The notes beneath the pieces are model-generated. The model was not told the DNA's origin, searched no databases, and was given only the letters and a program-made list of their open reading frames with translations. This document shows, in pieces, positions 14,826 to 46,940 of a DNA stretch of 64,000 nt (within the stretch, counting starts at the first letter, position 1; each line of letters starts with the position of its first letter). The stretch is from Podarcis erhardii (lineage: Eukaryota): the NCBI GenBank assembly GCA_964252035.1, contig OZ176211.1. One strand, written 5' to 3'. The translations under genes and the position numbers were made by a program.

Positions 14826-15604
14826 TGTAAGACCTCCCCTTCAGAAAAAAACCCAAAAACATTATCACTCAAGATGACCCTTCTGAAGACTCCTTCCAGT
14901 TCCTACAGAAGATATTGAACCTTCGCCCCTTATGTCTGTTGTTTTGCTTCCTGTCCAGCAGCCCTCCCATTCGCTAACTCTTTGGACTTACTGGATCAGC
15001 TCCAACCTCTTCCTGTTCCGACAGACTGCTTCTGTGTCTGTTTGCACCTGTTTGAGCTTCCTGAGAGATTTGGCTGTGTCCCAGCCCACTCTCAGTTGTT
15101 CCCTTGGCAACTGGCCATCCAAGGTCTGAGGGAGTCGGTGTTGGCAGCTCTGGCCTCTGCTCAGCCTGCGTCAATTCTAAACCTCTCTGTTCCTGCCCGT
15201 ATTCTGCAGCTGGCTGTAAAGTTCCCCTTGGAGCTGGCTCATTCCTGACACCTTCCTAGCAAACAGCATCTTCCCTTATGGTAGCTACTCATGGCCAAAT
15301 GTCTTTGAGTCCTTTGTTTCTGTACTCTTAACGAATACCACATTCTGGGAGAAGGGGGATCAGAAATACTTTCCAGTGACAACGTGTCATCTGGTTGCCC
15401 GGCTGCAGTTCCCCCCACTTCTTCTAACACTTCCCAACTTTTCAGTTTCTCTCTCTCTGAGCTGTGACTTTCCTCAAACCCCTCAAACCCCTGCTGTAAT
15501 TCAAGGCTGTCTCCCTCTTCTCCTGCAGCGTCTGGAGAAGGGGTGTGTGTGATCTCCACCATTCCTTCTCCTCCTTTTCACCCTCTTGAGTCCAGTCCTT
15601 GACA
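14826..15604 (-). mobile_element. Solo LTR (Gypsy-like, GA-rich), containing a nested LTR
   Basis: TGTCAAGG start at 15604 and ...CTTACA end at 14826; its frame is homologous to that of the LTR at 25295-25765. Outer TSD not found and the left end is uncertain. Confidence 0.65.
14884..15250 (-). mobile_element. Solo LTR nested in the previous LTR
   Basis: TG...CA ends; 5-bp TSD CCTTC at 14879-14883 and 15251-15255. Confidence 0.65.
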
Positions 15605-16957
15605 TCAGGGCACCTTGTTGGCTACCCCTGCTGTAGCATTTTGTCCCATGTCTGACTTCTTCTTCTCTTGCTTGGGCATCAGAGCCAGTTCAAATGTTAT
15701 ATTGTACCAGGCACAATATTGCAGAGCTGAGATTCACTAGCACTCTCTCTCTCTCTCTCTCTCTCTGTGTAAATGCTCATCAAATAGTAAAATCCAGATT
15801 GCTGGCGCATGGATCTCACCCACAGTCAGATCCAAGTGCTCCAGAGATCACTTCAGGTCACTTTGAGAGAATCATGTTGAGATGCGTGAGTCAGCAATTT
15901 GGTGTTAACATTATTAGTGGGTATGCAGGAAAGCACAAGTAATTTGTGTGCATTCACCATGCCTCCCGCAGTGTAAAATTCAAAACAGCCCTTGGGCTGC
16001 CTATGTATTAGGGGAGATGACTCTCAAAGGGTGAGTCACCCAAACAGCCACAATAGCCCACCAGGACTACAATGTCTCATTGCAGATCTGTAAAAAGAAG
16101 AATGGAGAAATTAAAAGTGACATTTTTAAAGCCCTACCTTTATAATCCAAATGTATGTGCGGAGAATTTAATTAGCGTCATAATTTTTCTAAGTTCAAGC
16201 CATCCCCAGAGTAACTTTAATGTAACTTCTGAAATTAATTAGAGCATATTATTTCTTAGAGGAAACAACCCTTTACAGTCTGCTTTGCAGTCACTGTTTC
16301 TTCATGTTATCTTTGAAACATTCTCGTGATCTTCAGCAGAAACGCCAACTTAATAAAGTTCTTAGTATTAAGTGAGGCTGCTTGAAGCCTGATGAGCCAA
16401 AACTGTGTATGCCATTTCTCTCTATTGCTAAGCCGGAGTTTCTGAAATACTTATTAAAAGGGTTTGAAAATGAGACAGAAATCAGCGTATTTTATGAAAA
16501 GAATTACTCATTTTCTGAGCCCTCCAAATTGTCCTAAAGAAGTTCCATTTGTCGTTTCCAACCCTTTATTTCCCCTGAAACGGAACCATAATTCAGTTAT
16601 CTGCTTAACTCCCTTTTTAGAACATGCACTTTTCTTGATGGCAATAATAATCAACAGAGATAAATTAAATTAATATCTTTACTGATGCAATAAATTAAAT
16701 CACTGTCTCCCTTTATCTGTCATCGGAGTGCAATATCACACGACAGGCTATCAAAACATTCATTTCTGGGTCAGAGATTCATGTATTAAGTTGGAAGCGT
16801 TCCTTATTTCATCTACTATTGTTACATAAATAGTAATGATAAGGACAAGCTGCAATAAAATGTTGCTGTGTGAACAAGGTCAGCTCACTTATAAGCTAAA
16901 GTGAGCTGCTTGCCTCAAGTGGTTGGTTACCAGGGTGGCGGATCAATGCCTCTAGCC

Positions 16958-17208
16958 CAGGTGTCAGCAAACTTTTTCAGCAGGGGGCTGGTCCACTGTC
17001 CCTCAGACCTTGTGGGGGGCCCGGACTATATTTTTTTTGGGGAAATGAACAAATTCCTATGCCCCACAAATAACCCAGAGATGCATTTTAAATAAAAGGA
17101 CACATTCTACTCATGTAAAAACACACTGATTACAGGACCCTCTGCGGGCTGGATTTGGAAGGCGATTGGTCCAGATCTGGTCACCTGCCCTTAGTTTGCC
17201 TACCCATG
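16958..17208 (+). mobile_element. hAT (Charlie-like) MITE, short version
   Basis: CAGGTGTCAGCAAACT...AGTTTGCCTACCCATG; TSD CTCTAGCC at 16950-16957 and 17209-17216. Confidence 0.88.
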
Positions 17209-17216
17209 CTCTAGCC

Positions 17217-17664
17217 ATGGGTCAGCAAACTAAGGCCCAGGGGCCGGATCAAGCCCAATTGCCTTCTGGATCCAGCCCGTGGATGGTCCAGGAATTGCTG
17301 CGCGGATCATCAGCGTGCACAGGTTGTTTCCCTCTCTCTCACATGGCAGTGGTGGTGTTTCCTCCCTCCCTCCTCCTGGCTTCTCCCCGCCCTGCCTACA
17401 GGAGGAAGGGAGCTGGGCTTTGTTGGTGCCAGCAGCAGCAGTGCTCGAGCAGCAGCCATTTAAAGCAGCCATTCTCCGGAGCCCTTTCAATCACCGCTCA
17501 TCGTCCCTCCGCTGCCAGCCCCTGCCGCTCGCAAGACACAGGTAGGCAGCCACTGGGGCTCATGGTGCTCTTGCATCATTTTTCCCCCAAAATATAATCC
17601 GGCCCCCCACAAGGTCTGAGGGACAGTGGACCGCCCCACTGCTGAAAAAGTTTGCTGACCCTTG
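17217..17664 (-). mobile_element. hAT (Charlie-like) MITE, long version, inverted
   Basis: Its right end is the reverse complement of the left arm of the previous element; flanked by CTCTAGCC and CTCTCGCC (17665-17672). Confidence 0.85.
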
Positions 17665-17894
17665 CTCTCGCCCATCACCAGAGGTGCCAGCTTCTCAGGA
17701 TGATGAAGCTGATACATGCCCTTACATGGTGTGTGTAATGTGTGAGAAGCCAGGGGGCGGAGCCAAATGCCTTCTGAACATTGAGGGGGCCCAGCTCCCT
17801 CAAAACCCCCCACATTTTGGGGGCACTGATGCTTCAGCCCCTAGGAGCCGGTGCCTCTGTCCATTACCCACTGTTTTCACCCTCCATCCCATGC

Positions 17895-18133
17895 AGAGCT
17901 GCAGTGCCTTTTCGGTGGTGGCGCCCACCCTGTGGAACGCCCTCCCAACAGACGTCAAAGAAATAAACAACTATATGACTTTTAGAAGACATCTGACGGC
18001 AGCCCTGTTTAGGAAAGTTTTAAATGTTTGATGTCTTCCATTTTTAATCCATTTTTAATCCCCAGAGTGGCTAGGGAAACCCGGATGGGTAGGGTATAAA
18101 TAATGAATTATTATTATAATATTATATTATTAT
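17895..18133 (+). mobile_element. L2 LINE 3' end
   Basis: AFSVVAPTLWNALPTDVKEINNYMTFRRHL plus TTA-rich tail. Confidence 0.85.
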
Positions 18134-18186
18134 TGACCACTTGCTGCTGCTGACCAGCCAGTCACTCCCCAATATAAGAACAACAA

Positions 18187-18335
18187 TAACTTTATTATTT
18201 ATATGCTGCCCATCTGACTGGGTTTCCCCAGATACTCTGTGTGGCTCCCAACAAAATATTAAAAACACAGTACAACATCAACCATTAAAAACTTCCCTGA
18301 ACAGGCCTTCAGATATTTTCTGAAAGTCAAATAGA
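18187..18335 (-). mobile_element. L2 LINE 3' end (inverted relative to the previous copy)
   Basis: Reverse complement of the same 3'UTR (GCCCATCTGACTGGGTTTCCCCAG...AAAAACTTCCCTG). Confidence 0.8.
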
Positions 18336-19232
18336 TCCAGTGGTTATAGAAATAATCTACTATTTTCCCATTCCAGCTAGGACTGATGGGAGCTGGAATC
18401 CACCAGCACCCTTATTTTAAACAGAGATGCTGTGCTCTTCTGCCTGCCAAGCCGCTGCTCTGTAACTGAGACATGGTCTATTCCCTGCCCCCCAGCCCCG
18501 GCCCATCAGCTGATCCCCACATCTTTCCATGCCGTTCCTCTCCTTCCGCTCCTTGGGGACCAGCCATGGACTGTGACAGAAGGAAAGCACGTGCTTCTTC
18601 CAACTCGTTTTCAATGGGTTATAAATAGAAGCAGAAGACTAAGCTTAAATAAGTGCCTCCTTTAATAAAAGTGTCCCATGTGCCGAAATAGGAAGAGGGG
18701 GGAAAAAACTGTTTTCATGGAAATGTTCAAGAAGTGATTTCAGGAACAATATCGGAAGAGTGATGAGATTATTAATGAGTCAGGCTCACACAGCTGGGCC
18801 TGAAAAACAGACTCCGACACTTTCCATTTTAAGATGATTTCCCTCTCTCTCTTTCTCTGTGATTTACTTTGCTTCAGTCCGGTTCTGAATGGGTTTGTAC
18901 ATTGGATAACAGCCAGAATAAGAGAAACACATTTTTTAAAAAATGCAGTTGTAGCCTGTCCATCTCCCAGGGAAGGGATGAGGCACCTGTGGTCCTCTAA
19001 ATGTTGCTGGACTACATATCCCATCATCTCCTGCCCATTGGCTATGCTGGCTGGGACTAATGGGAGATGGAGTCCAATACCATCTGGAGGGCCTCAGGTC
19101 CCTTGCCCCGCCCCAAGGTGCTGGACAGGGTAAATGCATTGTAATTATCTTACCCTAGACAGGGCTACTGCAGGTTTTGAAGGGGGCTTGGGCAAAGTGT
19201 TCTAAAGTACATCCCCCTCACAAGTTAGTGAG

Positions 19233-19505
19233 CTCAGACTGAGTCCAGACCAAAGGCCAAGCGGAACAGCTCTGTCTTGCAGGCCCTGCTTAAAGATGTT
19301 AAGTCTCGCAGGGCCCTAGTTTCTTGTGACAGAGCGTTCCACCAAGTTGGGGCCAGTACTGAAAAGGCCCTGGCCCTAGCTGAGACCAATCTAACCACCT
19401 TGTGACCAGGGACCTCCAAAATGTTGTCACTTGTGGACCTAAAGGTCCTCTGTGGGGCATACCAGGAGAGGCGTTCCCGTAGGTACGTGGGTCCTAGGCT
19501 GCATA
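19233..19505 (-). mobile_element. L2 LINE fragment
   Basis: LGPTYLRERLSWYAPQR...RAFSVLAPTWWNALSQE; a + strand copy of the same subfamily lies at about 24105-24482. Confidence 0.85.
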
Positions 19506-19597
19506 GTCCAGCATCTTCACTGTGGCCCATCTAGACCAGCATCTTCACAGTGACCAACCAGATGCCCATGAGGAACCCTCAAACAGTACCTGAGCAC

Positions 19598-19761
19598 CAG
19601 TGGCGTAGCGTGGGTTGTCAGCATCCGGGGCAAGGCAAGTAATTTGCGCCCCCTAACCTGTGGATTTTAGCAGGGGGCAGAGAGCTGCGAGTGCGAGCGC
19701 CCCCCCAGATGTTGCGCCCAGTGCAGCCGGCCGCCCCTGCACCCCCCACGCTATGCCACTG
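19598..19761 (+). mobile_element. hAT MITE (same family as 310-477)
   Basis: Same TIRs; 8-bp TSD CTGAGCAC at 19590-19597 and 19762-19769. Confidence 0.92.
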
Positions 19762-22700
19762 CTGAGCACAAGAGCTCTCTCGTCTCCTAGGGTTTCCAGC
19801 AACTGGTATTTCAAAGCATTACTGTGTAGAGGAGAAGGAAGAGAAAAAGCACATAGCTTAGAAGCCCTCTTCACACCTTCACAGAGGTGGGGCACACGGG
19901 GCATTGTGGGCGGAAGGAGGTAACACCACTGTATTAGCTACTCATCTTTACACATGTTATTCATTCATAAAACCAGAACAGAACTTCTGGGGTTTATTCA
20001 TTCCTGACCACTTCCTCCCATGTTTTGGCCTTGCATTTGCAACAAGAGCATCAGGATACGGTGTGCTTATGTTCGTAGGAAGTAGTTAAAGGAAAAAGAA
20101 AGAACAGTTGTGTGCATTTGATACTCTTTTTTTTATTGGGATAAGGAGGGCGATGGGAAAATCTGCATTTTGGTTGAGAAGGGTCATGGCTATCTTATTC
20201 CCTATCTCATTCCTTCCTAGACAGCTCTCTTTGATGTTGCAGTTCAAGCATATCACATCAAGCTCTTGTGACACACAGCCAGATGGGAGAGGCTAAAAGT
20301 CAGCCCAAGCATCGATTTTGAAAAAAACACACACCCTGGCAGATTCCAGGGATCCATATTTAGCGCCGCTCGCCTGCAGCAAACATCTCAGGCTAGCAAT
20401 GTTCAGAAACCAATGGGTGGAAGAACAAAGGAGGCAACCTCTTGTAAGGTTCTCGTTGCCAGTGGTCATTTGTCTTTTCATTGTTACAAGCAAAAGCAGA
20501 CAAACTGTTGGAGGCGGTATGTGCCTGAATGCCAGTGTCTGGAAGCCACAGGAGGGCAGAGTGCTCTTGTGGTCAGGTCCTGCTAACAGGCATTGTTGTC
20601 AGGAGCTCAGCCTACACTCGAGTAGGACCCTGGCAGAGACACATGCCTGACTGGCATGTTCTCTCCCTCCTGGTCGATTGTTTGGGAGCTTCAGAAGCTT
20701 TCTTCAGCCCGAACATCACAGCGACCAATGCCAACCAACACCGGCAACCTTAGGGATCGGTAGAGTCTTCGCAGTTCGCGTAACATACCTCAGCAACTCA
20801 GCATTTTGGCTAATCTACTTTATTTACATATAAACACACATGGAGCACTGCAACATGGCTCCCCCTCTCTCTAGCATCAGACAGCAACGAGATGGAACAA
20901 AGGACAATAATCCCACTTCATGGGACACAGTAACACAAACCTCCTGTCTCCATCACTTCCCACTTTGTGGAGTCAAAACATACCACGTCATGTGAAAGAC
21001 AACAATCCCATGACTGCAGCCAAGGAGCAGGAATTCTAACAGGCATCTGGTTGGCTACTGTGAGAACAGGATGCTAAACTAGATGGGCCAATGGCCTGAG
21101 CAAGCAGGGCTCTTACGATAAAGATGATAAACTAGAGAAAAGCACATGCAGAGCAACAATGCTGGTATCTCAAGTAATATCTCTTTGATTCTTCATTTTG
21201 GCTGATTAGGTTTTTAATATGTCATTAGCAGTGTATCCTCTATCCTGGTCAACATCTGAATTTATTTGAAATTGTTACACCCACACCTGATTTTATACAT
21301 GCAATTGTTTTAATTGTTTTTACGTTTGCAATTACTTTGTATATGGTTTATATTGTATTGTGAAATTGCTTTGAGATGCTTCATAGGAACCAATTAAGAA
21401 ATGAAATAACAACCAAACAAATAAACAAGCAAACAAATAAAAGTGTGTAAGTAACTCTTAACAGAGAACAGTGAATCATGGTGAGGGAAAAGCATTAATT
21501 TTCTGAACTTCTTCTTAGATTGGAGGGGTGGTGGAATCACTTTCCCTCCAGATCTTTTCTTTTTGGACGAAATGCTTTTGGCACAAGATGGTGCCCTTCA
21601 CTATATACACACACACAAACACACACGCAGGTGCTGACAGCCAAGCTCCTGCTAGGGACTTCTTCTTTGTTCCGGACCAGACAGTCTATTTCTGCTTGGT
21701 AACAGCAAGCCTAATGGACCCTTATTATATAGCTCTCTCTGGAAATCATGCCAGTGCTCCTTCAGAATTGGCCGAGAGCTGTGTTGAATCAATGAGGCAG
21801 CTGGCACCCTCCCCGGAGACTGAATGCTTTACCTTTTTGATTCATGCAGTCTATGCGAGCAGAGATCCAGGATGCCATGAGTGATTTCTCTTAGAGGCAG
21901 GTGAGAACAAAAGAGCTTTGTAAACCCAATTCAATAGAAGCGGCAGACATGGTGCTCTATTGATTACGAAAATACATACGCAGTCCAGAAGCATTTTCTC
22001 CGTAATTGATTTCTGGGCGAGGTGGAGCTGAGAGTCCTAACAAATAAAACATTCCATACCGGGATTGCCCTGCCTATATCAGCAAATGTGTAGGATCGGC
22101 CGCAGCTTCTTATAAGCCGAGTTCTTTGCTGAACAACATTTGCCCACTGTAGATTATATACTCAGTCCTAGAAATGATAGATGGAGAGAGATGGATTCTC
22201 TTGCATTTCTGGCCATATAAATTCCAGAGAAATGATTACAGATGCATAGAAGTTCTGGGAGGGAGTTGCCCAAGAGTGATAAAGAGATCTTGGGGAAAAC
22301 TTACTATTATTGTTGTTATCTTGATTTATGTCCTCTCAAGAAAGCATGTAGAGTTTTATCCTCCTGCTGCTTTTACGGTTCACAACAGCACACTACCCTC
22401 AGGTTTGAAGATGGCACGGGAAGCAGTCTTGAACCAATGCCAGCAGTGACTCTCTGTCAGTGCCCAAGAGGTTTGGTAACAAAGCTGAGAAATATGGCTG
22501 GGTCATGTTTGACTGAAGAGACCAGACCTATGAGAGGGTGGCTGAGGGCAAAGACTAACTACTTGCCGCCTCCTAGTTAGGTTTGTCTTTTTTCTCTGGA
22601 AGCAAGCTTGAATAGCTGCCAAAGCAAACTCTTTTTCATCCCTACCTCCCTTTGTTTCTGGAGAAGATTTATATAATTGCTTGCATTTGGGCCAGGCTTC

Positions 22701-23206
22701 TTTTAAATGTGGCTGGTGTTTCTGTTTTGTTTTGTTTTGCATGACTCGGGGATAATGTCCATGCAGTCTGAAGGTGAGGGTGCTGGGAGGCAATCGCTCA
22801 GTGCTGCTAGGCAAAGAAGCAAATTGTGATTGCAAACCAAAGAATATTTGTCAGGCTGTACAAAGAGGGCGTCTCTTCTTTAGGAAGGCTGGAGTCCAAC
22901 ACTTTGGCGTAGCATATAATTTTCTTATGCTGAGGGTTCATGCTGTGGTTCCAGCAAATATACCCTTGACTCGCATAATCCTTTAATATGCATTTCAGGA
23001 AAGGCTTTTAACACATAAAGGATGCTAGACAGAAGTTATGAAGAATGCTGATCCTTTCTGTGTTAAGAGAATTAAGCTGAAAGAGCAAAATCTAGCCTGC
23101 CAATGCTTATGTTTACCAAAGTACAATAAGCATTTTAAAGACTTTTATTGCCTCCTTTATATAACCTATTTATTAAATTATGCCCTTGCTCGTGACCTTT
23201 CTTGTA

Positions 23207-23448
23207 CAGTGGTACCTTGGGTTACAGACACTTCAGGTTACAGACACTTCAGGTTACAGAGTCCGCTAACCCGGAAGTAGTACCTCGGCTTAAGAACTTT
23301 GCTTCAGGATGAGAACAGAAATCGTGTGCCGGCGGTGTGACAGCAGCAGGAGGCCCCATTAGCTAAAGTGGTACCTCAGGTTGAGAACAGTTTCAGGTTA
23401 AGAACGGACCTCTGGAACGAATTAAGTACGCAACCAGAGGTACCACTG
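23207..23448 (+). mobile_element. Tc1/mariner MITE (family of 51-276)
   Basis: CAGTGGTACC...GGTACCACTG with TA TSD. Confidence 0.92.
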
Positions 23449-24104
23449 TAGATGGATATCCAGGTTGTCATTTACAGGAGGGTGCTAGCTGGTGTCTAAC
23501 TCCAGCTGCCCATGTTGTGCACAGGACATAGTATGAGAAGAAGTCTCAAGTGAGACTCCTCTAGCCTTGTTTAAACTAAAGCACATAAAAAGCCGGCTGG
23601 ATCAAGTCAATGACAAATGACAACATTCTGTCCTCACAAGTGGCCAAGCAGATGCCCGTGGGAACCAGCAAGCAGGACTCAAGCACAAGAGCCCTCTCTC
23701 CTCCTGGGGTTTCTAACAACTAGTATTCAGAAGTGTTACAGCCTCCAACCATCTAGGCAGAGTATAGTCATCATGGTTAGTAGCTCCATTTTGAAAAATA
23801 AGCATATCTTTCTGCATAATTTTTGCCCGGCTAATTGTTAAGTGGGCCAAGGATGTATACATGGCACTGATGCTCCCGCCCACCCACTTTTAAATATATA
23901 TACAGAGCCATGGGTTCTAGAAACTTGAATTCCTAGTGAAAGCTGAGCTTCTGCACCCACGCAGAAGTCATGGCCCACACACAGACCAGCCGTAAACTTC
24001 TTGGCCATTTCCCCTTCCACCCACTACAGCTTTTATTTCATCTCAATAGGATGGAGGTGTGTTTCTCCTTCCCAAATTGATGATGGCATCTAAAACACAG
24101 GGTA

Positions 24105-24435
24105 GCCCATCCCAGGCACTGGTAATCTCTTTAAGTGGTTCCATATTTCCCAGGCACCTTTCTTCTTCGATCTTTCTGCAGGGCCTGCAAGACAGAGCTG
24201 TTCCGCCTGGCCTTTGGTTTGGACTCAGTCTGACCCTTATGTCTTCCCTCCCCTTACGGTTTTGATCTATGGGCTACTTTTAAAATGAGGCTGCATTTTA
24301 AATTGCATTTTAACCTGTATTTTAAATTGTTTTTCTGTTCTTTTCTCCCCCCCCCCATTATGTTTCTATTGTAATTTTACTGATGTTGGCCGCCCTGAGC
24401 CTGACTGTGGCCAGGGAGGGAGGGGTATCAATAAA

Positions 24436-24481
<46 letters not shown>

Positions 24482-24482
24482 T
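24105..24482 (+). mobile_element. L2 LINE 3' end with (TTA)n tail
   Basis: GGGCCTGCAAGACAGAGCTGTTCCGCCTGGCC, 3'UTR and (TTA)n tail. Confidence 0.8.
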
Positions 24483-24964
24483 CTCCCACCTAATTTTCCT
24501 TGCATGATGTCACTTTCCTCTCCGCCTTTGCTTGCCATCTCATTCCCTATCAGCCGATACACGGTGGTGCAACAGGTGTTTCGATTTTGAGCCTTCTGCG
24601 GTTGGACATCAAAAGATGTCTTTCCTCATGTTCTCTTTCTTCTCTGCCAGTCCCTGCTTCTGGGCCTTCCCTGCTCCCTGTTTTTTTACAGTGGCCTTTC
24701 CTTGGTTCCACCCCACACCTTGCCATCAACTCGCATGCATTTTCTATTTGCGCACCTCACCTTTGCCAGGAGGACTTTGCTCTTGCCACATCAGACATTT
24801 TCCCTGCCTTATTCGAAACACTGCCTGCATCCCCCTTTACACTTGATAAGAACCCCTCTTGTTGGCAATTCATTTGACACTGTTTAGCATTTCCTGGAAG
24901 AGTGGTAGCATCCAGAGTGGCTGCACAGAATAAGACAAACAACTAGTGTTATGTATGCCAGGCA

Positions 24965-25108
24965 TAGCACTGCTCACAACTCTGTGAGGTAGGTTAGGCC
25001 CAGAAGCAGGCTGGCCCAAGGTCACCTAAGGTCAGCTTTGGGACTGAGTGGGGATTTGAACCCATGTCCTGTTCTGACACTAACCACTGCACCACATTGG
25101 CTCTCAAT
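24965..25108 (-). mobile_element. MIR/CORE-like SINE
   Basis: CTGTGAGGTAGG...CCCAAGGTCAC...GGGATTTGAACCC; similar copies at about 43480-43630 (-) and 48590-48720 (+). Confidence 0.65.
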
Positions 25109-25198
25109 GGCTCCCAAGACATTTTTTTGCTGCTTGAGTCAAAGGACTACTTCTCTATTCCACATACAGAATCCAAAGAGATGGACCATTGAATCTTC

Positions 25199-25870
25199 TT
25201 TAAGAGCATGAGAAGAGCCTGTTGGATCAATCCAGTGGCCCATCTAGTCCACCTTCTTATTCTCACAATGACCAGCTAAGTGTCTATGGGAAGCTGTCAG
25301 GCTTCAGGGAAATGAATCCCTCCCCCAGTGGCAGTAATTAAGCAGTTCAAATGAAAGGAGCGCTGTTACTAGATAGTTCTTAATAATCACAGCGAGAGAC
25401 AAGGAATGAATCTCTCTCTAAAATGGCGTTGCTCCCAGTTAAGGTTTACCCCCTCCATCCCCATTAATCTACGTCACTCCTACGTCATGTAATTCGAGTT
25501 TGTTGCCTCTGAGCTTTCTATTCTATCACTCTCAGAGTCCGTCTAGTCCTAGGCGAAGGGGAGTCCAAGGACACTGAATCTGCCAGCTCTCTCTTTCCTG
25601 GTGTTCAAATACTGTTCCTCACCTAGTATTTCCCAGCTTTTCCCTTCTGAACTATGCCCCTCTGCAAACCACTGTTCTAAATCAATACTGTCCTCCTGTC
25701 CTTGGGAAGGTTCAGGAGAAGAGAGGGGTGGCTCCCACCATTTCTCCTCAGTCCAGCCCCTTACAGAAGCCCACAAACAGGCCCTGAGCACAGTAGCACT
25801 CTCCCCTCCTGTGGTTTCCAGCAACCGGTATTCAGAAGCATACCTGCCTCTGACCATGGAGGCAGAGTAT
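25199..25870 (-). mobile_element. CR1-tailed SINE/LINE end split by a solo LTR
   Basis: TAAGAGCATGAGAAGAGCC...CTATGGGAAGC continues as CCACAAACAGG after the LTR is removed; other copies at about 21040-21120, 29085-29210, 36975-37085, 44990-45150 and 52330-52480. Confidence 0.75.
25295..25765 (-). mobile_element. Solo LTR (471 bp)
   Basis: TGT...ACA ends; exact 5-bp TSD GAAGC at 25290-25294 and 25766-25770; cleanly interrupts an older SINE. Confidence 0.9.
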
Positions 25871-25975
25871 ACACATCATGCTAAACCATGGTTTCAGCCT
25901 CCAAACAGGGGCAGACTTTGGTCTTTCAAATTTCAGTGGCACCCTGATTGAGGCCAAAATTTGGCACCTCCACCA

Positions 25976-26270: not shown

Positions 26271-26457
26271 CAAGTACACATTCCCAGCACGTTTGCACTC
26301 TGTCTCAGTGACATGGTCATGTCCACAGGATCCACAAAGACGTGCTCTACAGGGAGCTGGTTTCAGGCACCGGGCCAATCGGCAGACCAAATCTGCACTA
26401 TAAACAGGGCTTTTTCAGCCGGAACTCACTGGAACTGAATTCCAGCACCTCTCAGTT

Positions 26458-36291: not shown

Positions 36292-36722
36292 TTATGTTGT
36301 TGTTGTTGTTTAGTCGTTTAGTCGTGTCAAACTCTTCGTGACTCCATGGAGCAGAGCACGCCAGGCACTCCTGTCTTCCACTGCTTCCCGCAGTTTGGTC
36401 AAACTCATGCTGGTAGCTTCGAGAACACTGTCCAACCATCTCATCCTCTGTCGTCCCCTTCTCCTTGTGCCCTCAATCTTTCCCAACATCAGGGTCTTTT
36501 CCAGGGAGTCTTCTCTTCTCATGAGGTGGCCAAAGTATTGGAGTCTCAGCTTCAGGATCTGTCCTTCCAGTGAGCACTCAGGGCTGATTTCCTTCAGAAT
36601 GGATAGGTTTGGTCTTCTTGCAGTCCATGGGACTCTCAAGAGTCTCCTTCAGCACCATAATTCAAAAGCATCAATTCTTCGGTGATCAGCCTTCTTTATG
36701 GTCCAGCTCTCACTTCCATACT
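36292..36722 (-). mobile_element. Bov-B (RTE) LINE 3' fragment
   Basis: Open ORF 36310-36639 (RVPWTARRPNLSILKEISPECSLEGQILKLRLQYFGHLM...); (CAA)n tail. Confidence 0.93.
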
Positions 36723-37530
36723 GTATCTATTTTAAAGATCCGAATGAAAATCAGTGTTTCTCCCAAAGTGTACATTTCGGCAAGCATACCAACCGAACTG
36801 ACTTTCTCCCTGCCCTGACTTGTAATGGCTTATAAAGTTCACAAGATGGTGAAGTTCACCTGGGTAAAGGGAGACCAACAGGAAGGGCTAGCAGGAAACG
36901 CCTCCAGGTGTGCCAACATTCCAGGCTATTGTTAGAGGTATTATGCCTTTGAATCCCAGTTTCTGGGAGTCACAGGTGGGCAGAGTGCAGGTTTCCCATG
37001 GGCATCTGGTTGGTCACTGTGAGAACAGGATGCTGGACTACATGGGCCATTGGCCTCAACCAGCAGGCTTGCCTTATGTTCTTATGGAGAGTAAAAATCA
37101 CAGCTTTTCCTGAGAGTGTTTTGAGAAAGCTGTTAGTTTCATAGACTTCGATCCCTGAATGACAACAGGTTCTATGAGGGTCATTTCCCATCTTATACAG
37201 TCACAACACAAGACTGAGGCAGCAATTTGGGGGGCAGTCTTTGCCAAATCTAAGCATATAATAAGGAAGGGCTAATAATACACACTAATATTTCCCACCC
37301 AAGGGCATGTGTATGACTAACAAGCCTCTTCTAATCTCTTGCCATTCCTAAATTTTCTTTGAGAAAACATGTTCAAGCTCTCACCAACACAATAGCATGT
37401 CTCATTAAACAGGAGAATATGTCTATATCTGTTTCTATATGTACACTGTGCTGTACCCCACAACCTTACTGTATGCTTGAGAAATGTGGACCACTTATAA
37501 ACGCCATCTCCAACTCCTTGAAAGATTCCA

Positions 37531-38320
37531 TCAATGCTGTCTCTGAAAATTTTTACGCATCTCTCGGGAAGACAGGTGAATTAATGCCAGTGTACTGGAA
37601 GAAGCAAAGTTCACCAGTGATTCTTCAACATCAACTTTGTTGGACTGGTCATGTTGTGTGAATGCCTGTTTATCGTATTCCAAAGCAATTACAGTGGTAC
37701 CTCGGGTTAAGTACTTAATTCATTCCGGAGGTCCATTCTTAACCTGAAACTGTTCTTAACCTGAAGCACCACTTTAGCTAATGGGGCCTCCTGCTGCCGC
37801 CGTGCCGCCGGAGCACAATTTCTGTTCTCATCCTGAAGCAAAGTTCTCAACCCGAAGTAATATTTCTGGGTTAGTGGAGTCTGTAACCTGAAGCATATGT
37901 AATCTGAAGCGTATGTAACCTGAGGTACCACTGTACTCTATTCTGAACTTAAAAATGGAAAGCGAAATGCTGGTGGTCAACAAAAAGACTTGTCTCAAGG
38001 CAAATTTTAAAAAATGTAGTATAAACACCAACAATTGGGAAACACTGGCCCGTGAGTGCTCCAGTTGGAGAACAGCCTTTACCAAAGGTATCATGGGCTT
38101 TGAAAACACTTGAACTCAGGACGCAAGGGAGAAACGTGCTAAGAGGAAGGCACGCTTGGCAAATTCACACCATGATCAACTCCGCCCGGAAGCCAATGTC
38201 CCCACTGTGGAAGGACGTGTGGATCCAGAATTGGCCTCTACAGTCACTTACGGACTCACTGTTAAAACTGTGTTCATGGAAGACAATCTTACTCGGCTAC
38301 GAGTGATCACCAAAGAAGGA
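37531..38320 (+). mobile_element. RTE LINE 3' fragment split by a MITE
   Basis: WTGHVV...PKQLLYSELKNGKRNAGGQQK is rebuilt across the MITE. Confidence 0.82.
37692..37933 (-). mobile_element. Tc1/mariner MITE (family of 51-276)
   Basis: Same TIRs, TA TSD, reverse orientation. Confidence 0.92.
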
Positions 38321-39833
38321 GGAGGAGGCCCCACATGAACTGACACATCAAAGGAGGTACATTGCAGAAGTCCCATTGACTGCGCCTGACTATAGCGTTA
38401 AAGAAAGTCACATCTAGCCTGCTGCAAGGTAGGCCAATGTTGCTTCTTCACATTCCTGCTTCTGCCTATCACCCAGGGAACTTTAACTGATAAGCAAAGT
38501 TTTTCAGCTGGCTTCCTCTCCTGGTGTGGCTGCTTCAGTGTTGTTCCTTCTCCAGAGCTTCCACTCCTGTCTCCTCAGGAGTAAATTGTGGTCAGTTGCT
38601 GGCTGATGTTGACCCATGACAGGGTCTTTTCGGTGGTGGTTCCCCAATTGTAGAATGCCCTCCCTGGTAAGGTGTACCTGCCTCCTTCATTATTGACTTT
38701 CAGAAGAAGCTTAAAATCATTCCTGCTTACCCTTATTGATTTATTTCTGTAAAGACTAATTTTTCTGTGGGGACTGCCCAGGAGAACACTGACCTAAACT
38801 GATATCCCTCCCCACCCCAGCAATGCCCTTGGCCCTAAACAGTTACATGACAGGGCAAAGTTCAGCATGTGCATCTTTCTCTTGGCATGCAGTTGCTGTG
38901 CAGGAGAAAGATTTGCCAGCTGACTTCCTGCCTGTTTTTTTTTGTTTTGTTTTTAATAGCAGGGACAATTAAAGGCACAGGAGTCCTGCCAGGAAAAAGT
39001 TGGCAACCTACTGGTGTATGACACTCAATTAACCTCTATCCAAAAGCTGTGGCTTAACCAGGCCAGGGATCAAGTCAAATGAACTATGGATTGACTCAGA
39101 CTAAACCAGTCATGCTTTAGTCCTGTCCAGATCAGTGGGACAATTTAGCTGACCAGCTTAAGTGCCGTTGACATCAATAGGATTACAGCATGACCAACTC
39201 AGTGTAGATCCAATGCTATGATAATAATGTTTGTTGTCAACTTCTCTTTGCCTTGGGAAACCTGTCAATTAATCGTCCCTAGGGTGACCAACATAAAGAA
39301 TCCCACTAATTGGATTTTAATGACAAACTTCACTTTAGTCACACAGCAATTTTTGAAATCTAATTATCTCTTTAGGAGGACCACCCAATTCATTGCTTTT
39401 CTGCAATGTATTCTTTGCTCGCTCCTCACAAGCCTCTCCTTGTAATTTTGCTGTAAGGTATTTTCTTGTACAAGTGTGCATGAGTAATTAAAAGTGTGGC
39501 ATTCCACAGAGTACTGCTAGAGAAGACCTCTCGTATCTAATAAATTAACTATGTGAGATGTTAAAAAAAACAAAAACCCCAAACAAAGATGCATTGTATA
39601 TTTTGCACTTCAATCTTTTTCACATCGGCTTTCTGGTGAAGGAAGCCCATGAAGCTGGAGCCTGAGGTAAATTTACAGTGCAATGTTATACATCTCCACT
39701 CAGAAGTAAGTCCCATTCCGTTTATGTAAATGGCCTTTGGGGTGCAACATTTTTATACATGACCTCAACAGCTACTGCTGAGTTGTTTGTTTCTAAGTAG
39801 CTTTGGAACGCGGACTTTTCTTTTCCAAACTAT

Positions 39834-39835
<2 letters not shown>

Positions 39836-39877
<42 letters not shown>
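39836..39877. repeat. (TG)n microsatellite
   Basis: Direct observation. Confidence 0.98.
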
Positions 39878-39879
<2 letters not shown>

Positions 39880-40170
39880 CTAAATTAATGCACTCAACTG
39901 AAGACACTTCATCATACAGTGGTCTAGTTTTCATGTCATGCAAAACCAGAAGTGGCTTGCTTGATGGCTGTTTTGCCCCACTTCAACTCCTCTGGAAGTT
40001 GCATGCCCAATGGTGGGTGTGGTCAAAAGCGGGCATGACCACCCTGACTTACTGACCATCAAGCACATCTACCATGTCATCATGCCTGAGAAGGTGGAGC
40101 TGGTCACCAAATTCCCCTGATGCTGTTGCTCACATGTAGCTCTGGTTTCATTACTCTTTTTGCCTTTTTG

Positions 40171-40437
40171 GAGAGCCAGTGTGGTGTAGTGGTTAAGAGC
40201 AGTAGACTCGTAATCTGGTGAACCGGGTTCACTTCCCTGCTCCTCCACATGCAGCTGCTGGGTGAACTTGGGCTAGTCACACTTCTCTGAAGTCTCTCAG
40301 CCTCACTCACTTCACAGAGAGTTTGTTGTGGGGTTGAAGGGAAAGGAAAATGTTAGCTGCTTTGAGACTCCTTCGTGTAGTGATAAAGCGGGATATCATA
40401 TCCAAACTCCTCCTCCTCCTCCTCCTCTTCTTCTTCT
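40171..40437 (+). mobile_element. Squam3-like SINE
   Basis: Third copy of the family. Confidence 0.85.
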
Positions 40438-40676
40438 CTGCCCAGAAATTTTTGCCATTGCTGCTCCACAGGCACCCTTGGTATCTTGACTGGGAGTGGA
40501 ATTATGGTGCTGCCTTTTAACAATGCTTTTTAAAAAAGACAGCATTGCCCTGTTGAGTGTGGTGGTTGAATTCACACTGAAATTGAGAATGCCTCGATTT
40601 TACTGAAGGCTTTAACATTGGGATTTTCCATAGGGCTATATTAAACTCTCTGAGCTCCTATATGGGTTGATAATTA

Positions 40677-42075
40677 CCGTATTTTCCCGTGTATAAGGTG
40701 ATATTCCCCCCCCCAATTTTTTAAGTTTAAAATTGGGGGTCGTCTTATACACAGAATGTCGCAATTCTGCCGCCATCCATATTCTCTCTCCCCCAGATTC
40801 CCCTCACTATTGGCTTCACGACAAACCCTCGTCTGGCACTCCCCCCCAGCAGCTCCCACTCAGGACATTGTCCCTTCCACCCGCAGCTGCCCTCTGGCTA
40901 CCCAGACCCCACATTTCCCAAGTGCATGCACTCAGGCAGCTCTGGCAGTCACAGCTTCTTGATCAGCATTTGCATGTGCTGGTGCTCATGGAGTAAATAT
41001 GGTACATACCGTAAATACTAAGACAAAAGTGCAACACAAAGGTGGGAGAGCTGGAGCTGCAGCTGCAGTAGAGTTACACTGAGCTGACAGGAGCAGCCAG
41101 CATTACACAGTTTGCCTCACTGTTTGATGTTTAAATATACGGTACTAAATATACTGGTTGTCAGGGGTTCAGGGAGAGAGGCGCAGATGAGGGAGGAGAC
41201 AGAGAGTGAGGGGGAAGGATTCCAGAGTGACGAGGAAGAGGATGACAATGACCCAAGATTGTCCATGAGTCCGTCCAGTGAATCGGAGGACTCCCAAAAG
41301 GGAGCCCCTCTGGTCAAGCCAAGGGGAGCTAGAGGGGGAAGCAGTCAGGAGCAGGGAAATGAAGGGGGAACCCCCAGTGGGAGTTGGAGAGCGAGACCGG
41401 CTGCTCCGCTGGAACGGAGTGAGGGGGGAGGAGTGACCAGTGTGTCAGAAGGAGCAGAACAGGAAGCAGAGAGGGGAAGGAGATCAGGGCAAAACGTCCT
41501 GCCGGAAGGGGAGGAAAGTAGTATCGAGGGCAGTGTAACTGTCGAAGGGAAGGTCAGGAGCAACGTACGCGCGCCAAGTTCAAAATGGGAGGCTCGCGGA
41601 AATGAAGAGAGTCCTGGGGAGGAGCCTGGTCCCAAAGCCCGAAGGAGGGGGGAGGAGGCGGCAGAGGATTCAGCCTCTGGAGAGTCCCGAAGGGAGAGAA
41701 CACAGGGGGGCAGAAAGACCCTGCGGAAAAGGAAAGCGAGAAAGAGGTGGACCAGTACAAGCCTCTTAAACTGGTGTAGAGGGGGGACCGACTCAGAGGG
41801 GACTTCAGCGGTCTAAGGGTAACAGACGTAGAGTCACGGAGCTCGGATGTGAAGCTAATAATGTTCTTCAATAAAAGCTTTTGTACATAAGCTGGAGCGG
41901 ACTTTGGTCTCTTGTGAGCTGGGACCACGGGTGACTCTGACACTGGTGTTTTGAATATTTAATAAAATATCAAAGTTGTTCTGTTTGGTGTTTAAAATAT
42001 TTATTTCTTAATTTGGGGCTCAAAAAATAGGGGTCGTCTTATACATGGGTGCGTCTTATGCACGGAAAAATACAG
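40677..42075. mobile_element. Non-autonomous TcMar (Tc2/pogo-like) element, interrupted by a solo LTR
   Basis: TIR CCGTATTTTCCCGTGTATAAG...CTTATGCACGGAAAAATACAG; TA flanks; subterminal GGGGTCGTCTTATAC repeats. Confidence 0.85.
41159..41942 (+). mobile_element. Solo LTR (784 bp) containing a long ORF
   Basis: TGTCAG...CTGACA ends; 5-bp TSD CTGGT at 41154-41158 and 41943-41947; AATAAA near 41870. Confidence 0.92.
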
Positions 42076-44090
42076 TAACTGCTGCTGTTCTCTGCTAGTT
42101 CTGATGTGGTCTTTAACCTTAGATCAGGTGATTAAGGTATTGAATTGCAAATAGCCATTTTGAAGGGAGTTATGTTTGGTCATTTGTTCCCAGCCAGAGT
42201 GGAAGTAAGATGGGATAAGGGTGCTCTTCTGGAGCTGCCTAGCCCCTTGGGGCTGGAAAAAGGCTAATGAAGGCTGGAATGGGGGAGAGACACAGTTTTG
42301 ATTTCTGGAAGAAGTAAAGTTATTTCTAAGATGCTGAACTTGTTCTGGGCATGTACAAGATCTTATGGAACTGTTTGGATACATCGTTTACTGTATTTTG
42401 TTCTGTTCTGAGGAAAGTTCTGTAAGTAAAGCTTTGAATCAAGCTTGTGGGTGGGCCTGGGCAATGTTTGCTTCCAAAAGGAGTCAGCTTTTATGCATCC
42501 AGTCGCTTCTAGCTATGCAGTCTTAAGATCTGCAATATGCCCTCACTCTTAACTGGCTTCAGAACACGGCTGCTTGAAACTAAATGCTTCCTGCCCTTGC
42601 TCCAAGGGGTTCCTGGAGAACAGAAGTGTTGGCCGGGTGTTGTTATGAAGCAGCCAGAGCCTTAAAATAAATAAGGAGCATGGGTGGGTGGGCAACATTT
42701 GCCCTCCTTCAGTAACTGCCCAAAGTTTGAGTTAAAACACGTTAGTTGCAAGCGTGCAGAAATGCCCTCCTTATTTTCCTTTCTGAAGTGGCAGAGAGTC
42801 TGCCTTTTTTTACTTCCACATTTCACAGATGGGGATTGGTCTTCTTGCTTGCTCTGGTATCCGTCTGACTTCTTCGCTTGCAGGCAATAAAAGTCACCCG
42901 TTGTCCCTCCACTTTCTCCAGCCATTCCTCCTCCTGGGGCGAGAGCTGCCTGCTGTGGAAGATCTAGGAAAAGTATTGCTGTGATAATCAGAATCTGGCG
43001 CTCGAGGGACTAAGTGCTACATTGCTGGGATGTCATTGAGGGAGTGAGGCTGGGTCTTATTTGACTCTAGCAAGAGGTGAATTGAGCCTTGATCAGGGAG
43101 AACAATTTTAACACATTTGGCTGCATGCACACTGTCTTTTATCTGCGGAAGGTTTTGACTGTAACAGGAAAAATGAGCATGTTATTCCTGTAGCGCATGT
43201 TTCTGAGCTCATTTATCAATGGAATGAGAAAAGTTGCAGAAATGGTAAGAAAAGGAAAAGGAAAGTTATAATACCCAAATCAGGCTTCTGCAATGTGTGA
43301 CCCACTGAGGACTGTGCCCTACCAAGGCTTCATTTATCCCTCTGAGGTTTTTTCCGCTGACCACCCAAGGCTGCAACAGCAGAGAAATTATTATTGTTGT
43401 TGTTGTTATTACTACATTTCTACCCCCACTTTTCCTCCAAGGGTCTCAAGTTGGCATACATGGTTCTTCCCCATCTCACTTAATCCCTCACAACCACCCT
43501 GTGAGGTAGATTAGGCTGAGAGGCAGCGACTGGTCCAAAATCACACCCAGTGAGCTTCAGGGCCAAGTGGGGATTCGAACCCTGATCTCCTAGGTCCTAG
43601 TCAGGCACTCTGACCACTGCACCACACAGGCTCAGGCTGTCAAGCGCATGACAACTGGCTAGTGTTGCTACAGATTTTGCAAGGCTGCATTGAATCAAGT
43701 GACTTGGGACTGAGCCAGTCCACACCCCCTCTCTGTAGGCCACACCCCTTGCTGGCTCTGCCAGCGTTTTTGTCCAGCAATAACTTTTGCTTCTCTGCCT
43801 AGAGAGCAGTATGTGGGTAGAAAACAGCTTGTTGTACAAAGGTAAAATTTACATTCACCGGTCTGCCCTGGCCCCTCCACCCTTGACCTTGGGTTGAAAA
43901 TTGTTCCCTATCACTGATTTTAACCCAAAGCAATTCACAGTCTGATTCTCTCAGCCAGGCGCAGTCAAACTGGTCCTCTCTGTATGTTTTGCACTCCTTC
44001 ATTTGCAGCCATAGGCTTTGCAGGTTGTTCTGTGTCACAGGAGCACGTCAGTCAGTATTCACAAAGATCAAAGGTGGAGTTAGCTCTTTA

Positions 44091-44316
44091 CAGTGGTACC
44101 TCGGGTTACATACGCTTCAGGTTACACACTCCGCTAACCCATAAATAGCGCTTCAGGTTAAGAACTTTGCTTCAGGATAAGAACAGAAATCATGCTCTGG
44201 CTGCGCGGCAGCAGCAGGAGGCCCCATTAGCTAAAGTGGTGCTTCAGGTTAAGAACAGTTTCAGGTTAAGAATGGACCTCGGGAACGAATTAAGTACTTA
44301 ACCTGAGGTACCACTG
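44091..44316 (+). mobile_element. Tc1/mariner MITE (family of 51-276)
   Basis: TIRs and TA TSD. Confidence 0.92.
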
Positions 44317-44354
44317 TATTAGCAAAAACGTGACCTCCACAGACTTGGTTGGAT

Positions 44355-44847
44355 TGTCAGGCCTAATGAGAACAGCAGCTCATGCCCAGTGGTCTTCCTC
44401 CATGAAAATCATTTGCCAAGACTGAACATTCCCACCTCCTCACCAGAGCTTTCCCCAAGCAATTGGAGACTGAACCTGTATGCAGCCAACCTCTCCTCCA
44501 CCCTCTTCATGTCTCTTCTGGTTCTGGAGACAAGCAAGGATGGGAGCTTGTCATAGCAGAAGCGGGGAAGACATCTGTGACTCTTCACCAGCCTGACTCA
44601 TCTCTGCCTCTTCATCCCACTCTCTGGTTTCAGCTTCTGCCTCTGATTCTGGTCTTCTCACTGCCACCAACTCTTCCAGCTCACTAAGCCCTTTTAGCTC
44701 TTTAGCTTCTTTCTCCCAATCTTCTCTCTCTACCCCCTCCCTCCATCATTGTCCCACCACTACTCCCCAGGCTCTGAGCCTTCTTCCCTTGGTGGTTCTC
44801 CAGCTGGAACCTCCCACCATTCCTCTGTGTCCAACCAGTCCATGACA
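44355..44847 (-). mobile_element. Solo LTR (MDWLD subfamily)
   Basis: TGTCATGGACTGGTTGGAC start and ...GCCTGACA end, like the LTR at 25295; no TSD match. Confidence 0.7.
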
Positions 44848-45686
44848 TTCTGCTAAGGCACTTTGTCCTTGCAAGTTAGCGGCAGCTCCCCCTCCCACAT
44901 CCTAGCCTGGTATAACAGCTGCCTTCAGTTCAGCTGCATTGCGATCCCTCTCACCCTGGGGCCATGTAAAATTCACTGCACCACAATCAGAGGCAAGGAT
45001 GCTTCTGAATATCAGTTGCTGGAAGCCACAGGTAGGCAGAGGAATGCTTGCACCCAAGTCCTGCTTGCAGGTTTCCCATAGGCATCTGGTTGGCCAGATG
45101 CTGGACTAGATGGGCCATTGGCCTGATCCAGCAAGCCTCTTCTTCTCTTCTGGCAAGGAAGGACCAGTTGCCCACCATCTGCTATTATGAAGGATTTTAT
45201 GAAGCTTTTTTGCCTGTTTCATAACAGCCACAAAACCGAGCCATAACATAAAGCAAGGAAGAGGATAGAGAAGCTTCCTTGGCATGGCACTGTGCTCTGG
45301 TTGCAGATGAGCAAGCCACTGCAGCAGCTTAGAGTGATACATTGGGTCATTGTGGCTTCCATTGTCATTTAACTCAATGAAGCGAAATCGGCATAAAGTT
45401 ACAATTCCAAGGAGACGCAGTAGGGAGTAAGCCCCATTGAACTCAGGCTGGGTTTACTTCTCTCGGTAAACATGGTGGGATTGAGCTGTCAGTTGTACCG
45501 TTTTACTTCATTGGGTTGTGGATCGGGCTGTCTCTTATTACAAAATAAAACAGTATATTCTTGGTCTTCTTAGGTGGTAAATGCTAATTGTGTGGATTAA
45601 AGAGGCGGCAAGAGGGCACAGCTTGTATAATGATATCACACTTACAACCTTTAAAGATTCTTATCTTAGGTATGCAGATTTCCCTG

Positions 45687-45836
45687 CATAGAACCATAGA
45701 ATTGCAGAGTTGGAAGGGACCATGAGGGTTATCAAGTCCAACCCCCTGCAATGCAGGAATCTTTTTGTCCAACGTGGGTCTCAAACCCATGACCCTGAGA
45801 TTGAATGTCTCATGATCTACCAACTGAGCCATCCCA
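45687..45836 (-). mobile_element. tRNA plus CR1-tail SINE (POM-SINE-like)
   Basis: tRNA head plus GGACTTGATAACCC...CCAACTCTGCAATTCTATG tail; + strand copy at 49507-49642. Confidence 0.8.
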
Positions 45837-46194
45837 TATGCTCTAGATAAAAGTTGCTTGTTCAACAGGCATACACCTGGTAGTCATCTTTGATGATAGG
45901 ATAGGCCTGGTTTGGGAGCTCCAGTTGGTGCAGAATGATGCAACCAGACTGCCGTTGGGGGCGCATGGCCAACAGAGTATGTGGCACCGTTGTTGAAACA
46001 TCTATACTGGCTACCCATCTACTGGTAGTATCATGGTTTTGCTGAATTGTATTCATTTTATTGATTAATTTATTGCTGTTTGCTTTATGTAGATATTATT
46101 GTGATTATTGTGAGCTGCTTCGAACTCAATGTTTGTTGTTGGAAAAGTGGAATACAAATATTAAATCAAAATCAAACCAAAATCCTGTGGAAGT

Positions 46195-46650
46195 GAGTTC
46201 CATAGTTTACCTAAACGCTGAGTGAAGAAGTACTTCCTTTTATCTGTTTGGAATCTTGTTCAACTTTGTTAGATGTCTATGAGTTCCTGTATTATGAGAG
46301 AGGGCAACAAAACTTTTCTCTATCTACTTTCTCCATGCCATGCATAATTCCATAAACTTCTAACATGTCACCTCTTTCTTAACTAAAAAGTCCCAGATGC
46401 TGAAACCTTTCTTCAGAACATTGTCACTCCATCCCCTTTATCATTTTGGCTGCCCTTTTCTGAACATTTTCCAACACCACAATATCCTTTTTGAGGTGAG
46501 GCAACCAGAACAGTAGACAGTATTCTAAATACACTTGCACCATAGATTAGTATAACAGCATTATGATGCCATCGGTCTTGTTTTCAATTCCTTTCCCAAT
46601 GATCCCCAGCATGGAATTTGCCTTTCTCACAGCTGCTACACTCTGGGATC
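46195..46650 (-). mobile_element. CR1 LINE ORF2 fragment
   Basis: Degenerate RT C-terminal region (TTTTAGTTAAGAAAGAGGTGACATG; GTCTACTGTTCTGG). Confidence 0.75.
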
Positions 46651-46779
46651 AGCATCTCCATTGAGCTATCTGCTACAACGCCAGAGTCCCACTTCTGGTC
46701 AGTCATGAGTCACAACCAGCTCAGACCCCATGAGCACTTTTTCCCCCCATTAGAACAGGGCACTTGGGTGGGACTACAG

Positions 46780-46940
46780 CAAGCCCTGTTACCTTTTCAG
46801 CTTCTGACACCTCTTCTTCCCAGTCTTCTGCCTCTGACCACTCATACTTGTCCCACCACCATCACTCTGAGCCTTTCCCCCTTGATGGTTCCCCAGCTGG
46901 TTCTTCCCACCACTCTTCTGCGTCCAACCAGTCCATAACA
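46780..46940 (-). mobile_element. Truncated LTR (MDWLD subfamily)
   Basis: TGTTATGGACTGGTTGGAC start; colinear with the 44847 end. Confidence 0.7.

Follow-up and report, generated by a model that had tools for sequence, protein, structure and literature searches.

LTR copies in the window

The window analysed here is a stretch of 64,000 nucleotides from the Podarcis erhardii contig OZ176211.1 (assembly GCA_964252035.1). Its six LTR copies, named here by their start positions, come from Ty3/Gypsy chromoviruses that show Tf1/Sushi features. The copy at 41159 belongs to a young family (C1), and the others to the old families A1 (25765), A2 (15604), G (15250), and B (44847 and 46940). The features are as follows.

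41159..41942, + strand: complete solo LTR of young family C1 (784 nt), with TSD CTGGT
41160..41816, + strand: frame +2, comprising the last 218 pol codons and the stop; in full-length copies, pol runs on into this frame
41796..41805, + strand: self-priming site inside the ORF and putative R start; in full-length copies, the primer site that follows the 5′ LTR is its complement
41870..41875, + strand: AATAAA polyadenylation signal of the family C1 LTR
25295..25765, − strand: complete old solo LTR of family A1 (471 nt), with TSD GCTTC
15251..15604, − strand: 5′ portion of an old solo LTR from family A2, the sister of A1; the nested 15250 copy cuts into it, and frameshifts break the frame
14859..15250, − strand: nested old LTR of family G, with 392 nt present out of about 504, breaking off at 14859
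44033..44847, − strand: old solo LTR of family B, with TSD CAGAA and another repeat inserted at about 44089–44319
46781..46940, − strand: fragment of 160 nt from the 5′ end of a family B LTR

The original prediction described these copies as six TG...CA elements. An LTR does begin at each of the six positions, with TGT as its first letters, but both ends are present in only three (25765, 41159, and 44847), and the 5-bp TSDs claimed for three elements flank exactly these. It also described a long frame from LTR nucleotide 2 in each copy; the phase is correct, but the open length of frame +2 is only 25–218 codons (15604, 53; 15250, 91; 25765, 71; 41159, 218; 44847, 28; 46940, 25). The valine at nucleotide 2 carries no weight as evidence, because the TGT terminus forces it. 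The 15604 and 25765 proteins, as proposed, both read across frameshifts. In the 25765 copy, frame +2 is broken near codon 50. The mainly synonymous changes reported for the HSSE..KSWE block are present.

At the family level, frame +2 is mostly open. Its first stop-majority codon column lies at LTR nucleotide 317 or later in A1, and none occurs before nucleotide 425 in B. Family G has such columns at nucleotide 278, probably through CpG decay, and then at 380; its family frame is open for about 126 codons. Homopolymer runs make the column count drift in A2, but individual natural copies of that family stay open over 100 codons. In the 25765, 44847, and 15250 families, frames +1 and +3 contain many stop-majority columns. 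The copies of C1 are 99% identical and are open in frame +2 for 218 codons in 30/30 loci, while all 11 of the C-type natural copies carry 7–10 stops in frame +1 and 3–5 in frame +3. When the 41159 copy and one natural copy per old family, selected as the most open of that family, were shuffled, 1, 15, 9, 4, and 36 of 5000 shuffles stayed open. Composition alone rarely yields these open frames.

Pol reading through the PPT into the 3′ LTR

In these elements gag is followed by PR-RT-RH-IN, the order of the Tf1/Sushi group. In full-length natural copies from the 41159 family and three others (D, E, and F), a single ORF encodes PR-RT-RH-IN-SH3-chromodomain-acidic linker-tail and crosses the PPT, uninterrupted by any stop, into frame +2 of the 3′ LTR, which adds 71–218 residues. 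The extension of pol/integrase that was originally proposed as one option is therefore seen in natural copies; the other option, a separate accessory protein, is not needed, as the frame is the in-frame end of pol in four families. The ORF spans the junction with 1329 + 218 codons in natural copy L094, with 1273 + 96 codons in family D and with 532 + 109 codons in family E; copies L092 and L095 also have one ORF across it, and family F contributes 71 LTR codons. At least 500 open codons lie upstream of the junction in 22/40 cases for frame +2 and in 0/40 for the other two frames. The junction residues are G-x-x-D followed by the V of the LTR, and the phase is fixed by the terminal TGT together with two bases between the PPT and the LTR. 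The junction and tail are also in frame in three of five close matches among UniRef proteins of Podarcis muralis. A control sister family, which has a canonical chromodomain, ends pol ahead of the PPT, and frame +2 of its LTR runs for just 10 codons before closing (3/3 loci). No env-like ORF is found between integrase and LTR. The idea of a spliced accessory mRNA was dropped, as families D, E, and F do not retain the splice-donor-like sequence that follows the 5′ LTR in C1.

In families C1, D, E, and F, a stretch of 10–11 nt that follows the 5′ LTR is complementary to a site within the LTR, the arrangement of self-priming. The ORF stop lies about 20 nt past this site, and in C1 about 55 nt separate the stop from the downstream AATAAA. 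If the self-priming site marks the RNA start, the U3 so defined would therefore be coding throughout. The chromodomain after integrase scores 41 bits in family D (cut-off 25.1); that of C1 scores 16.3 bits, under the cut-off, and its fold is confident in AlphaFold. The 5-bp TSDs are accompanied by Sushi-type LTR termini, as defined by the motif in Table 3 of PMC3601003.

No internal region was recovered for the old families in flank comparisons of the 158 copies that have a 5′ end (0/158) and of 20 additional B copies (0/20). Two junction-pattern searches returned 2 and 4 matches, none with a PPT or pol, and a third returned 15 matches against 27 in the control. Searches for longer proteins of these families found none, which is weak evidence. 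For A1, A2, B, and G, pol read-through is thus something we infer.

Selection on the tail and its predicted structure

As anticipated for a coding frame, dN/dS in frame +2 is below 1 in the read-through families. A codon model of 11 natural copies gives omega 0.447 for the LTR tail (2ΔlnL 47.7 against omega = 1) and 0.122 for the integrase core. In families D/E, omega is 0.347 for the tail and 0.239 for its last 45 codons. Of 15 pairwise bootstrap intervals, 13 exclude 1. The tail is under purifying but loose selection, an omega of about 0.45 being weak. Between old subfamilies, column-wise pN/pS in frame +2 is 0.43 for A1 versus A2 (P = 7e-6), 0.38 for G, and 0.36 for B, where the minor clade comprises only 6 copies, some chosen at the protein level; shifted frames give 0.92–1.93 in the same comparisons. 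Within families, no synonymous excess clearly tied to the frame is seen among shared variants when copies are selected by DNA, with synonymous:nonsynonymous counts in frame +2 against the other frames of 7:13 vs. 7:13 and 4:17 (A1), 6:28 vs. 10:25 and 11:21 (B), 13:28 vs. 12:25 and 6:29 (G), and 17:29 vs. 9:37 and 12:33 (A2). A stronger signal from a test of singleton versus shared variants was rejected as biased; it came from protein-selected copies, and DNA-selected ones gave no clear signal.

The C1 tail consists of an acidic, Ser-rich part followed by a basic C-terminal motif, in which Arg and Leu-Leu are invariant in 6/6 aligned proteins. The first part is acidic and the last more basic in 11/11 tails, and the net charge is positive in 10. 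Tail length varies threefold, and the tails of distant families have only the short motif in common. AlphaFold models the chromodomain with confidence and the tail with low confidence, and the tail is predicted to be disordered. The 218-residue C1 tail matched no Pfam family, an ESM Atlas search gave no usable match, and scans of viral and metagenome contigs with queries P0115 and P0120 gave no matches.

Interpretation and known systems

The most probable explanation is that pol of a lizard Ty3/Gypsy chromovirus runs through the PPT and so adds a selected, predicted-disordered tail to integrase, likely as a nuclear-import or chromatin arm, and that the window copies are solo-LTR remnants of such elements. 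The pol frame continues through the PPT into the 3′ LTR and encodes an acidic-then-basic tail, which would remain on integrase, uncut by protease. This putative arm likely aids the element in reaching chromatin or holding on to it. Neither solo LTRs nor 5′ LTRs would make the tail protein, because their U3 lies upstream of the presumed RNA start.

Long 3′ UTRs trigger nonsense-mediated decay, and read-through might instead protect the RNA by moving the stop beside the poly(A) signal, with a tail that is merely soluble and harmless. The short distance from stop to AATAAA in C1, a stop kept relative to the self-priming site while the tail spans 96 to 218 codons, and the modest omega with predicted disorder suit this idea; the basic/Leu-Leu motif kept across families, the omega of 0.24 in D/E, and a control family that does without read-through make it unlikely. 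Release of linker and tail from pol by protease, as a small chromatin-tethering or regulatory protein, has a retroviral precedent in MLV p12 and would fit the long, predicted disordered linker between chromodomain and tail, but in the plant precedent the LTR-coded part stays on integrase, and we regard such release as improbable.

For the old families, the frame could be a separate LTR-borne gene, or a dead frame inherited by non-autonomous families. Their missing internal regions, the lack of a selection signal within families, and a Met as the second codon of the family B frame point that way. Against this stand the phase and the acidic-then-basic layout, both as in the read-through families, the Sushi-type termini, and the synonymous excess between old subfamilies, and we consider it quite unlikely. 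Chance opening of frames by a purine-rich, T-poor LTR is extremely improbable. The T fraction is only 0.11–0.18, and family B also has an open antisense frame of about 130 codons, but this reading is refuted by the continuity with pol, by openness of one frame on the strand (stops interrupt the other two in all 11 natural C-type copies), and by omega below 1.

HIV nef, MMTV sag, and foamy bel2 are separate genes that overlap U3 and are expressed from spliced mRNAs of enveloped retroviruses; the lizard frame likewise codes for protein inside U3, but as the in-frame end of pol. Closer parallels occur in plants. In the centromeric elements of CRM group A, pol coding continues beyond the PPT, and the 3′ LTR supplies the C-terminus of integrase, with a CR motif proposed as a targeting domain (PMC3059260, PMC5818461). 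Those accounts share with the lizard elements a Ty3/Gypsy chromovirus, a 5-bp TSD, and a pol ORF entering the 3′ LTR. They differ in that the CR motif replaces the chromodomain, whereas the lizard elements keep theirs upstream of the PPT, followed by the acidic linker and a tail of 71–218 residues, and in that CRM group A primes with tRNA-Met, the lizard elements by self-complementarity. The hosts are plant and lizard, and the likeness drawn here is one of layout. Among beet Reina-clade elements, the portion of PMC3605345 consulted describes an ORF extending into the LTR in Bingo1–4 and Bingo7, and not in the sisters Bingo5 and 6; it states neither a length nor a function for the extension, nor any test of selection. 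The chromodomain upstream of the PPT and an extension present in some families and absent in sisters are common to both, although Bingo is a plant lineage and the lizard families are vertebrate. The Tf1/Sushi V-clade (Sushi-ichi, Amn-ichi/ni/san) comprises vertebrate chromoviruses that share self-priming, a chromodomain, and TGTYANR...CNTNACA termini with the lizard elements, and the sections available of its accounts make no mention of pol passing through U3 (PMC2774666, PMC6317226, PMC4131045, PMC3601003).

No vertebrate description of pol read-through into the LTR was found in a search of the open literature. On that search, the novelty originally suggested may stand for vertebrates; it does not for the layout, which is already known from CRM group A and some Reina elements. 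A bolder reading, which we hold to be rather unlikely, is that vertebrate chromoviruses independently evolved the CRM solution, an LTR-encoded tail that would steer insertion. In some subfamilies the target would be the centromeric end of acrocentric lizard chromosomes, and a single piece of DNA would serve as promoter, primer, att site, and code for the targeting peptide.

A pol tail would explain thousands of lizard solo LTRs that resemble protein fossils, and an LTR promoter region can evidently be coding end to end under purifying selection. For annotation, pol models that end at the PPT would be incomplete, and an open frame in a solo LTR is not necessarily an accessory gene. A single genome offers natural contrasts, between tail and no tail, among tails of 71–218 residues, and between dispersed subfamilies and the young ones that are in some cases clustered at chromosome ends. 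These contrasts are useful for insertion-site choice by vertebrate chromoviruses, a subject for which plants and yeast have supplied most of the work.

Pol read-through into the 3′ LTR

The reading frame that the window LTRs share from nucleotide 2, proposed in the original prediction as a possible pol/integrase extension through the PPT or an accessory protein, is confirmed, in families with full-length copies, as a C-terminal extension of integrase encoded in the LTR. LTR pairs of family C1 (41159 in the window) are spaced 5.7 kb apart, and in three of the five natural paired-LTR copies examined, a single ORF of 1413–1547 codons crosses the PPT to LTR nt 656–658; the remaining two carry a frameshift upstream. 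The C1 element has Pfam protease, RT, RNase H, H2C2, rve and SH3_Tf2-1 domains, and its LTR-coded part has no Pfam match. SH3_Tf2-1 is followed by a chromodomain with a confident predicted fold, which scores over the cut-off in family D and under it in C1, then by an acidic Trp-containing linker and the junction G-x-x-D|V.

Further families, retrieved by an SH3 domain search, read through in phase for 96 (D), 108–109 (E) and 71–92 (F) LTR codons. Five C-related subfamilies do so for 207–210 LTR codons, with the junction present in 29/30 loci. The junction pattern gave 48 matches over 45 long loci, of which 40 were kept after exclusion of eight not at an LTR start. An upstream ORF does feed frame +2, which is open for 500 codons or more ahead of 22 of these 40 junctions, the other two frames ahead of none. 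In a control family whose chromodomain is canonical, the pol stop precedes the PPT, and LTR frame +2 is shut after 10 codons (3/3 loci). The gag and pol genes overlap in different frames (L091:1055–2272 and 2110 onward), which implies a ribosomal frameshift for pol. Loci L205, L218, L219 and L095 have a near-identical LTR pair and a large internal deletion (LTR spacing 3.0–5.3 kb), and their integrase end and tail are both still in frame.

Window LTRs and selection on the frame

All six window starts proved to be LTR starts, of five families, but only three are complete with a 5-bp TSD; the other three are truncated. In a first look at the 1.5-Gb genome, candidates, which are not copy numbers, amounted to 2133 for A1 (25765), 1017 for A2 (15604), 502 for G (15250), 3786 for B (44847, 46940) and 2338 for C1. 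A1, A2, B and G, at 77–92% identity to their best other copies, are old, and C1 (99%) is young. The valine at LTR nt 2 is dictated by the TGT terminus and is no sign of coding. The shared frame is real at the family level; of 5000 same-composition shuffles, between 1 and 36 kept it open. A short repeat with TACAGTGGTACC-type ends, which we take to resemble a Tc1/mariner-type MITE, lies at window 44089–44319, 49–279, 23221–23451 and 37690–37936, and one copy interrupts the 44847 LTR.

A codon model run on natural intact copies bore out the expected constraint, putting omega for the LTR portion of the ORF at 0.447 (206 codons in 11 copies; 2ΔlnL 47.7 vs. omega 1), or at 0.466 without C1. Omega was 0.122 in the integrase core and 0.347 in families D/E (final 45 codons, 0.239). 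Pairwise values for the LTR-coded part were 0.25–0.66, with 1 outside 13 of 15 intervals, and were similar in the linker outside the LTR (0.26–0.52). Synonymous divergence among C subfamilies varies strongly by region, as in C2 vs. C4 (chromodomain 0.07, linker 0.39; L299–L328, L091–L095), hinting at recombination that may exchange chromodomain, linker and LTR modules.

In the old families, differences among subfamilies, counted per column, favoured synonymous change in frame +2 only. A1 vs. A2 gave a pN/pS of 0.43 in this frame and 1.11 and 1.93 in the shifted frames; the frame +2 values were 0.36 for B (40 vs. 6 copies) and 0.38 for G (4 vs. 25). Shared variants within DNA-selected sets had no clear frame effect, and a stronger within-family signal was set aside, since selecting copies by protein had inflated it. 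Under mixed ascertainment, indels of at least 2 nt were multiples of three in 10/12 shared by at least four copies and in 68/141 private ones. Of 179 copies of A1, A2, B and G, 158 had a 5′ end, and none of these showed an internal region, nor did 20 additional B copies; for this reason, we infer their read-through from phase, layout, termini and selection. The 10-mer just before the family B stop is often identical to the C1 self-priming site.

Known systems and the likely role of the tail

The arrangement itself is already known, and the lizard elements vary it. As in these elements, pol is described as entering the 3′ LTR in plant CRM group A, whose LTR carries the coding sequence of the CR motif (PMC3059260), and in beet Reina families Bingo1–4 and 7 (PMC3605345). 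V-clade chromoviruses are known from fish, amphibians and reptiles (PMC2774666, PMC4131045), and the accessible text of a review of additional ORFs covers separate ORFs only (PMC7264820). No vertebrate description of pol entering the 3′ LTR was found in the literature, subscription papers and Repbase being outside the search. Among named proteins, the nearest come from Podarcis muralis. In a Vipera latastei protein model (P0115, KAM3854145.1), SH3 and chromodomain are accompanied by an acidic stretch and a basic end with Leu-Leu; in a Prochilodus fish model (P0123, KAI4897596.1), a G-G-G-D-V-T stretch lies behind the chromodomain. Such public protein models suggest that read-through may extend beyond the Podarcis erhardii genome. 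In P0115, P0123, P0120 and P0011, the chromodomain precedes an acidic/basic tail or a D-V junction-like stretch.

Each tail begins with an acidic part rich in Ser and Gly and finishes with a basic one. Structure prediction on a six-sequence alignment returned disorder except for a weak short helix at the Leu-Leu motif. Arg and Leu-Leu are invariant in a comparison of six proteins. These features fit a flexible arm whose terminal motif might serve import or chromatin binding. That the read-through instead serves RNA stability seems unlikely, and release of the tail by the protease would be quite improbable.

Self-priming and chromosomal distribution

No tRNA primer site was found behind the 5′ LTR in families C1, D, E and F, where 10–11 nt, located 2 nt past the 5′ LTR, are complementary to an LTR-internal site. 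The pair lies in the outer stem of the C1 leader fold (z −2.0), and self-priming is a hallmark of Tf1/Sushi elements (PMC6317226). In C1, D and E, the self-priming site is 18–22 nt upstream of the pol stop. By analogy with Tf1, the LTR-internal site is presumably the RNA 5′ end; with that end so close to the stop, the whole U3 would be coding, its ORF overlapped by PPT, att site, promoter and primer, and the tail would not be expressed from solo LTRs.

Internal-bearing C2–C5 matches lay no more than 1.2 Mb from a contig end in 42/68 cases (contig C19 excluded; 2.6 expected), counted over 19 ends, mostly one per chromosome. The corresponding figures were 2/105 for family D among the matches listed (contigs C1–C5), 0/29 for family C1 and, with two rows on an unplaced contig excluded, 4/39 for LTR-only rows, of which all 20 checked were subfamily C2. 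LTR-pair identity of end-located copies was 99.4–100% in five and 97.6–98% in two, and several lie amid tandem repeats. Lacertid chromosomes are mostly acrocentric (PMC7290949), so the ends carrying clustered copies may be centromeric. The clustering may reflect insertion preference, via tail or chromodomain, or differential survival. Near chromosome ends (~1 Mb), the young C-related subfamilies occur with nested copies and 51-, 101-, 133-, 274- and 496-bp tandem repeats (e.g. L341–L350, L355–L360). Contig C19 (30 Mb), likely the W chromosome, holds 31/99 internal-bearing C2–C5 matches and many decayed elements.
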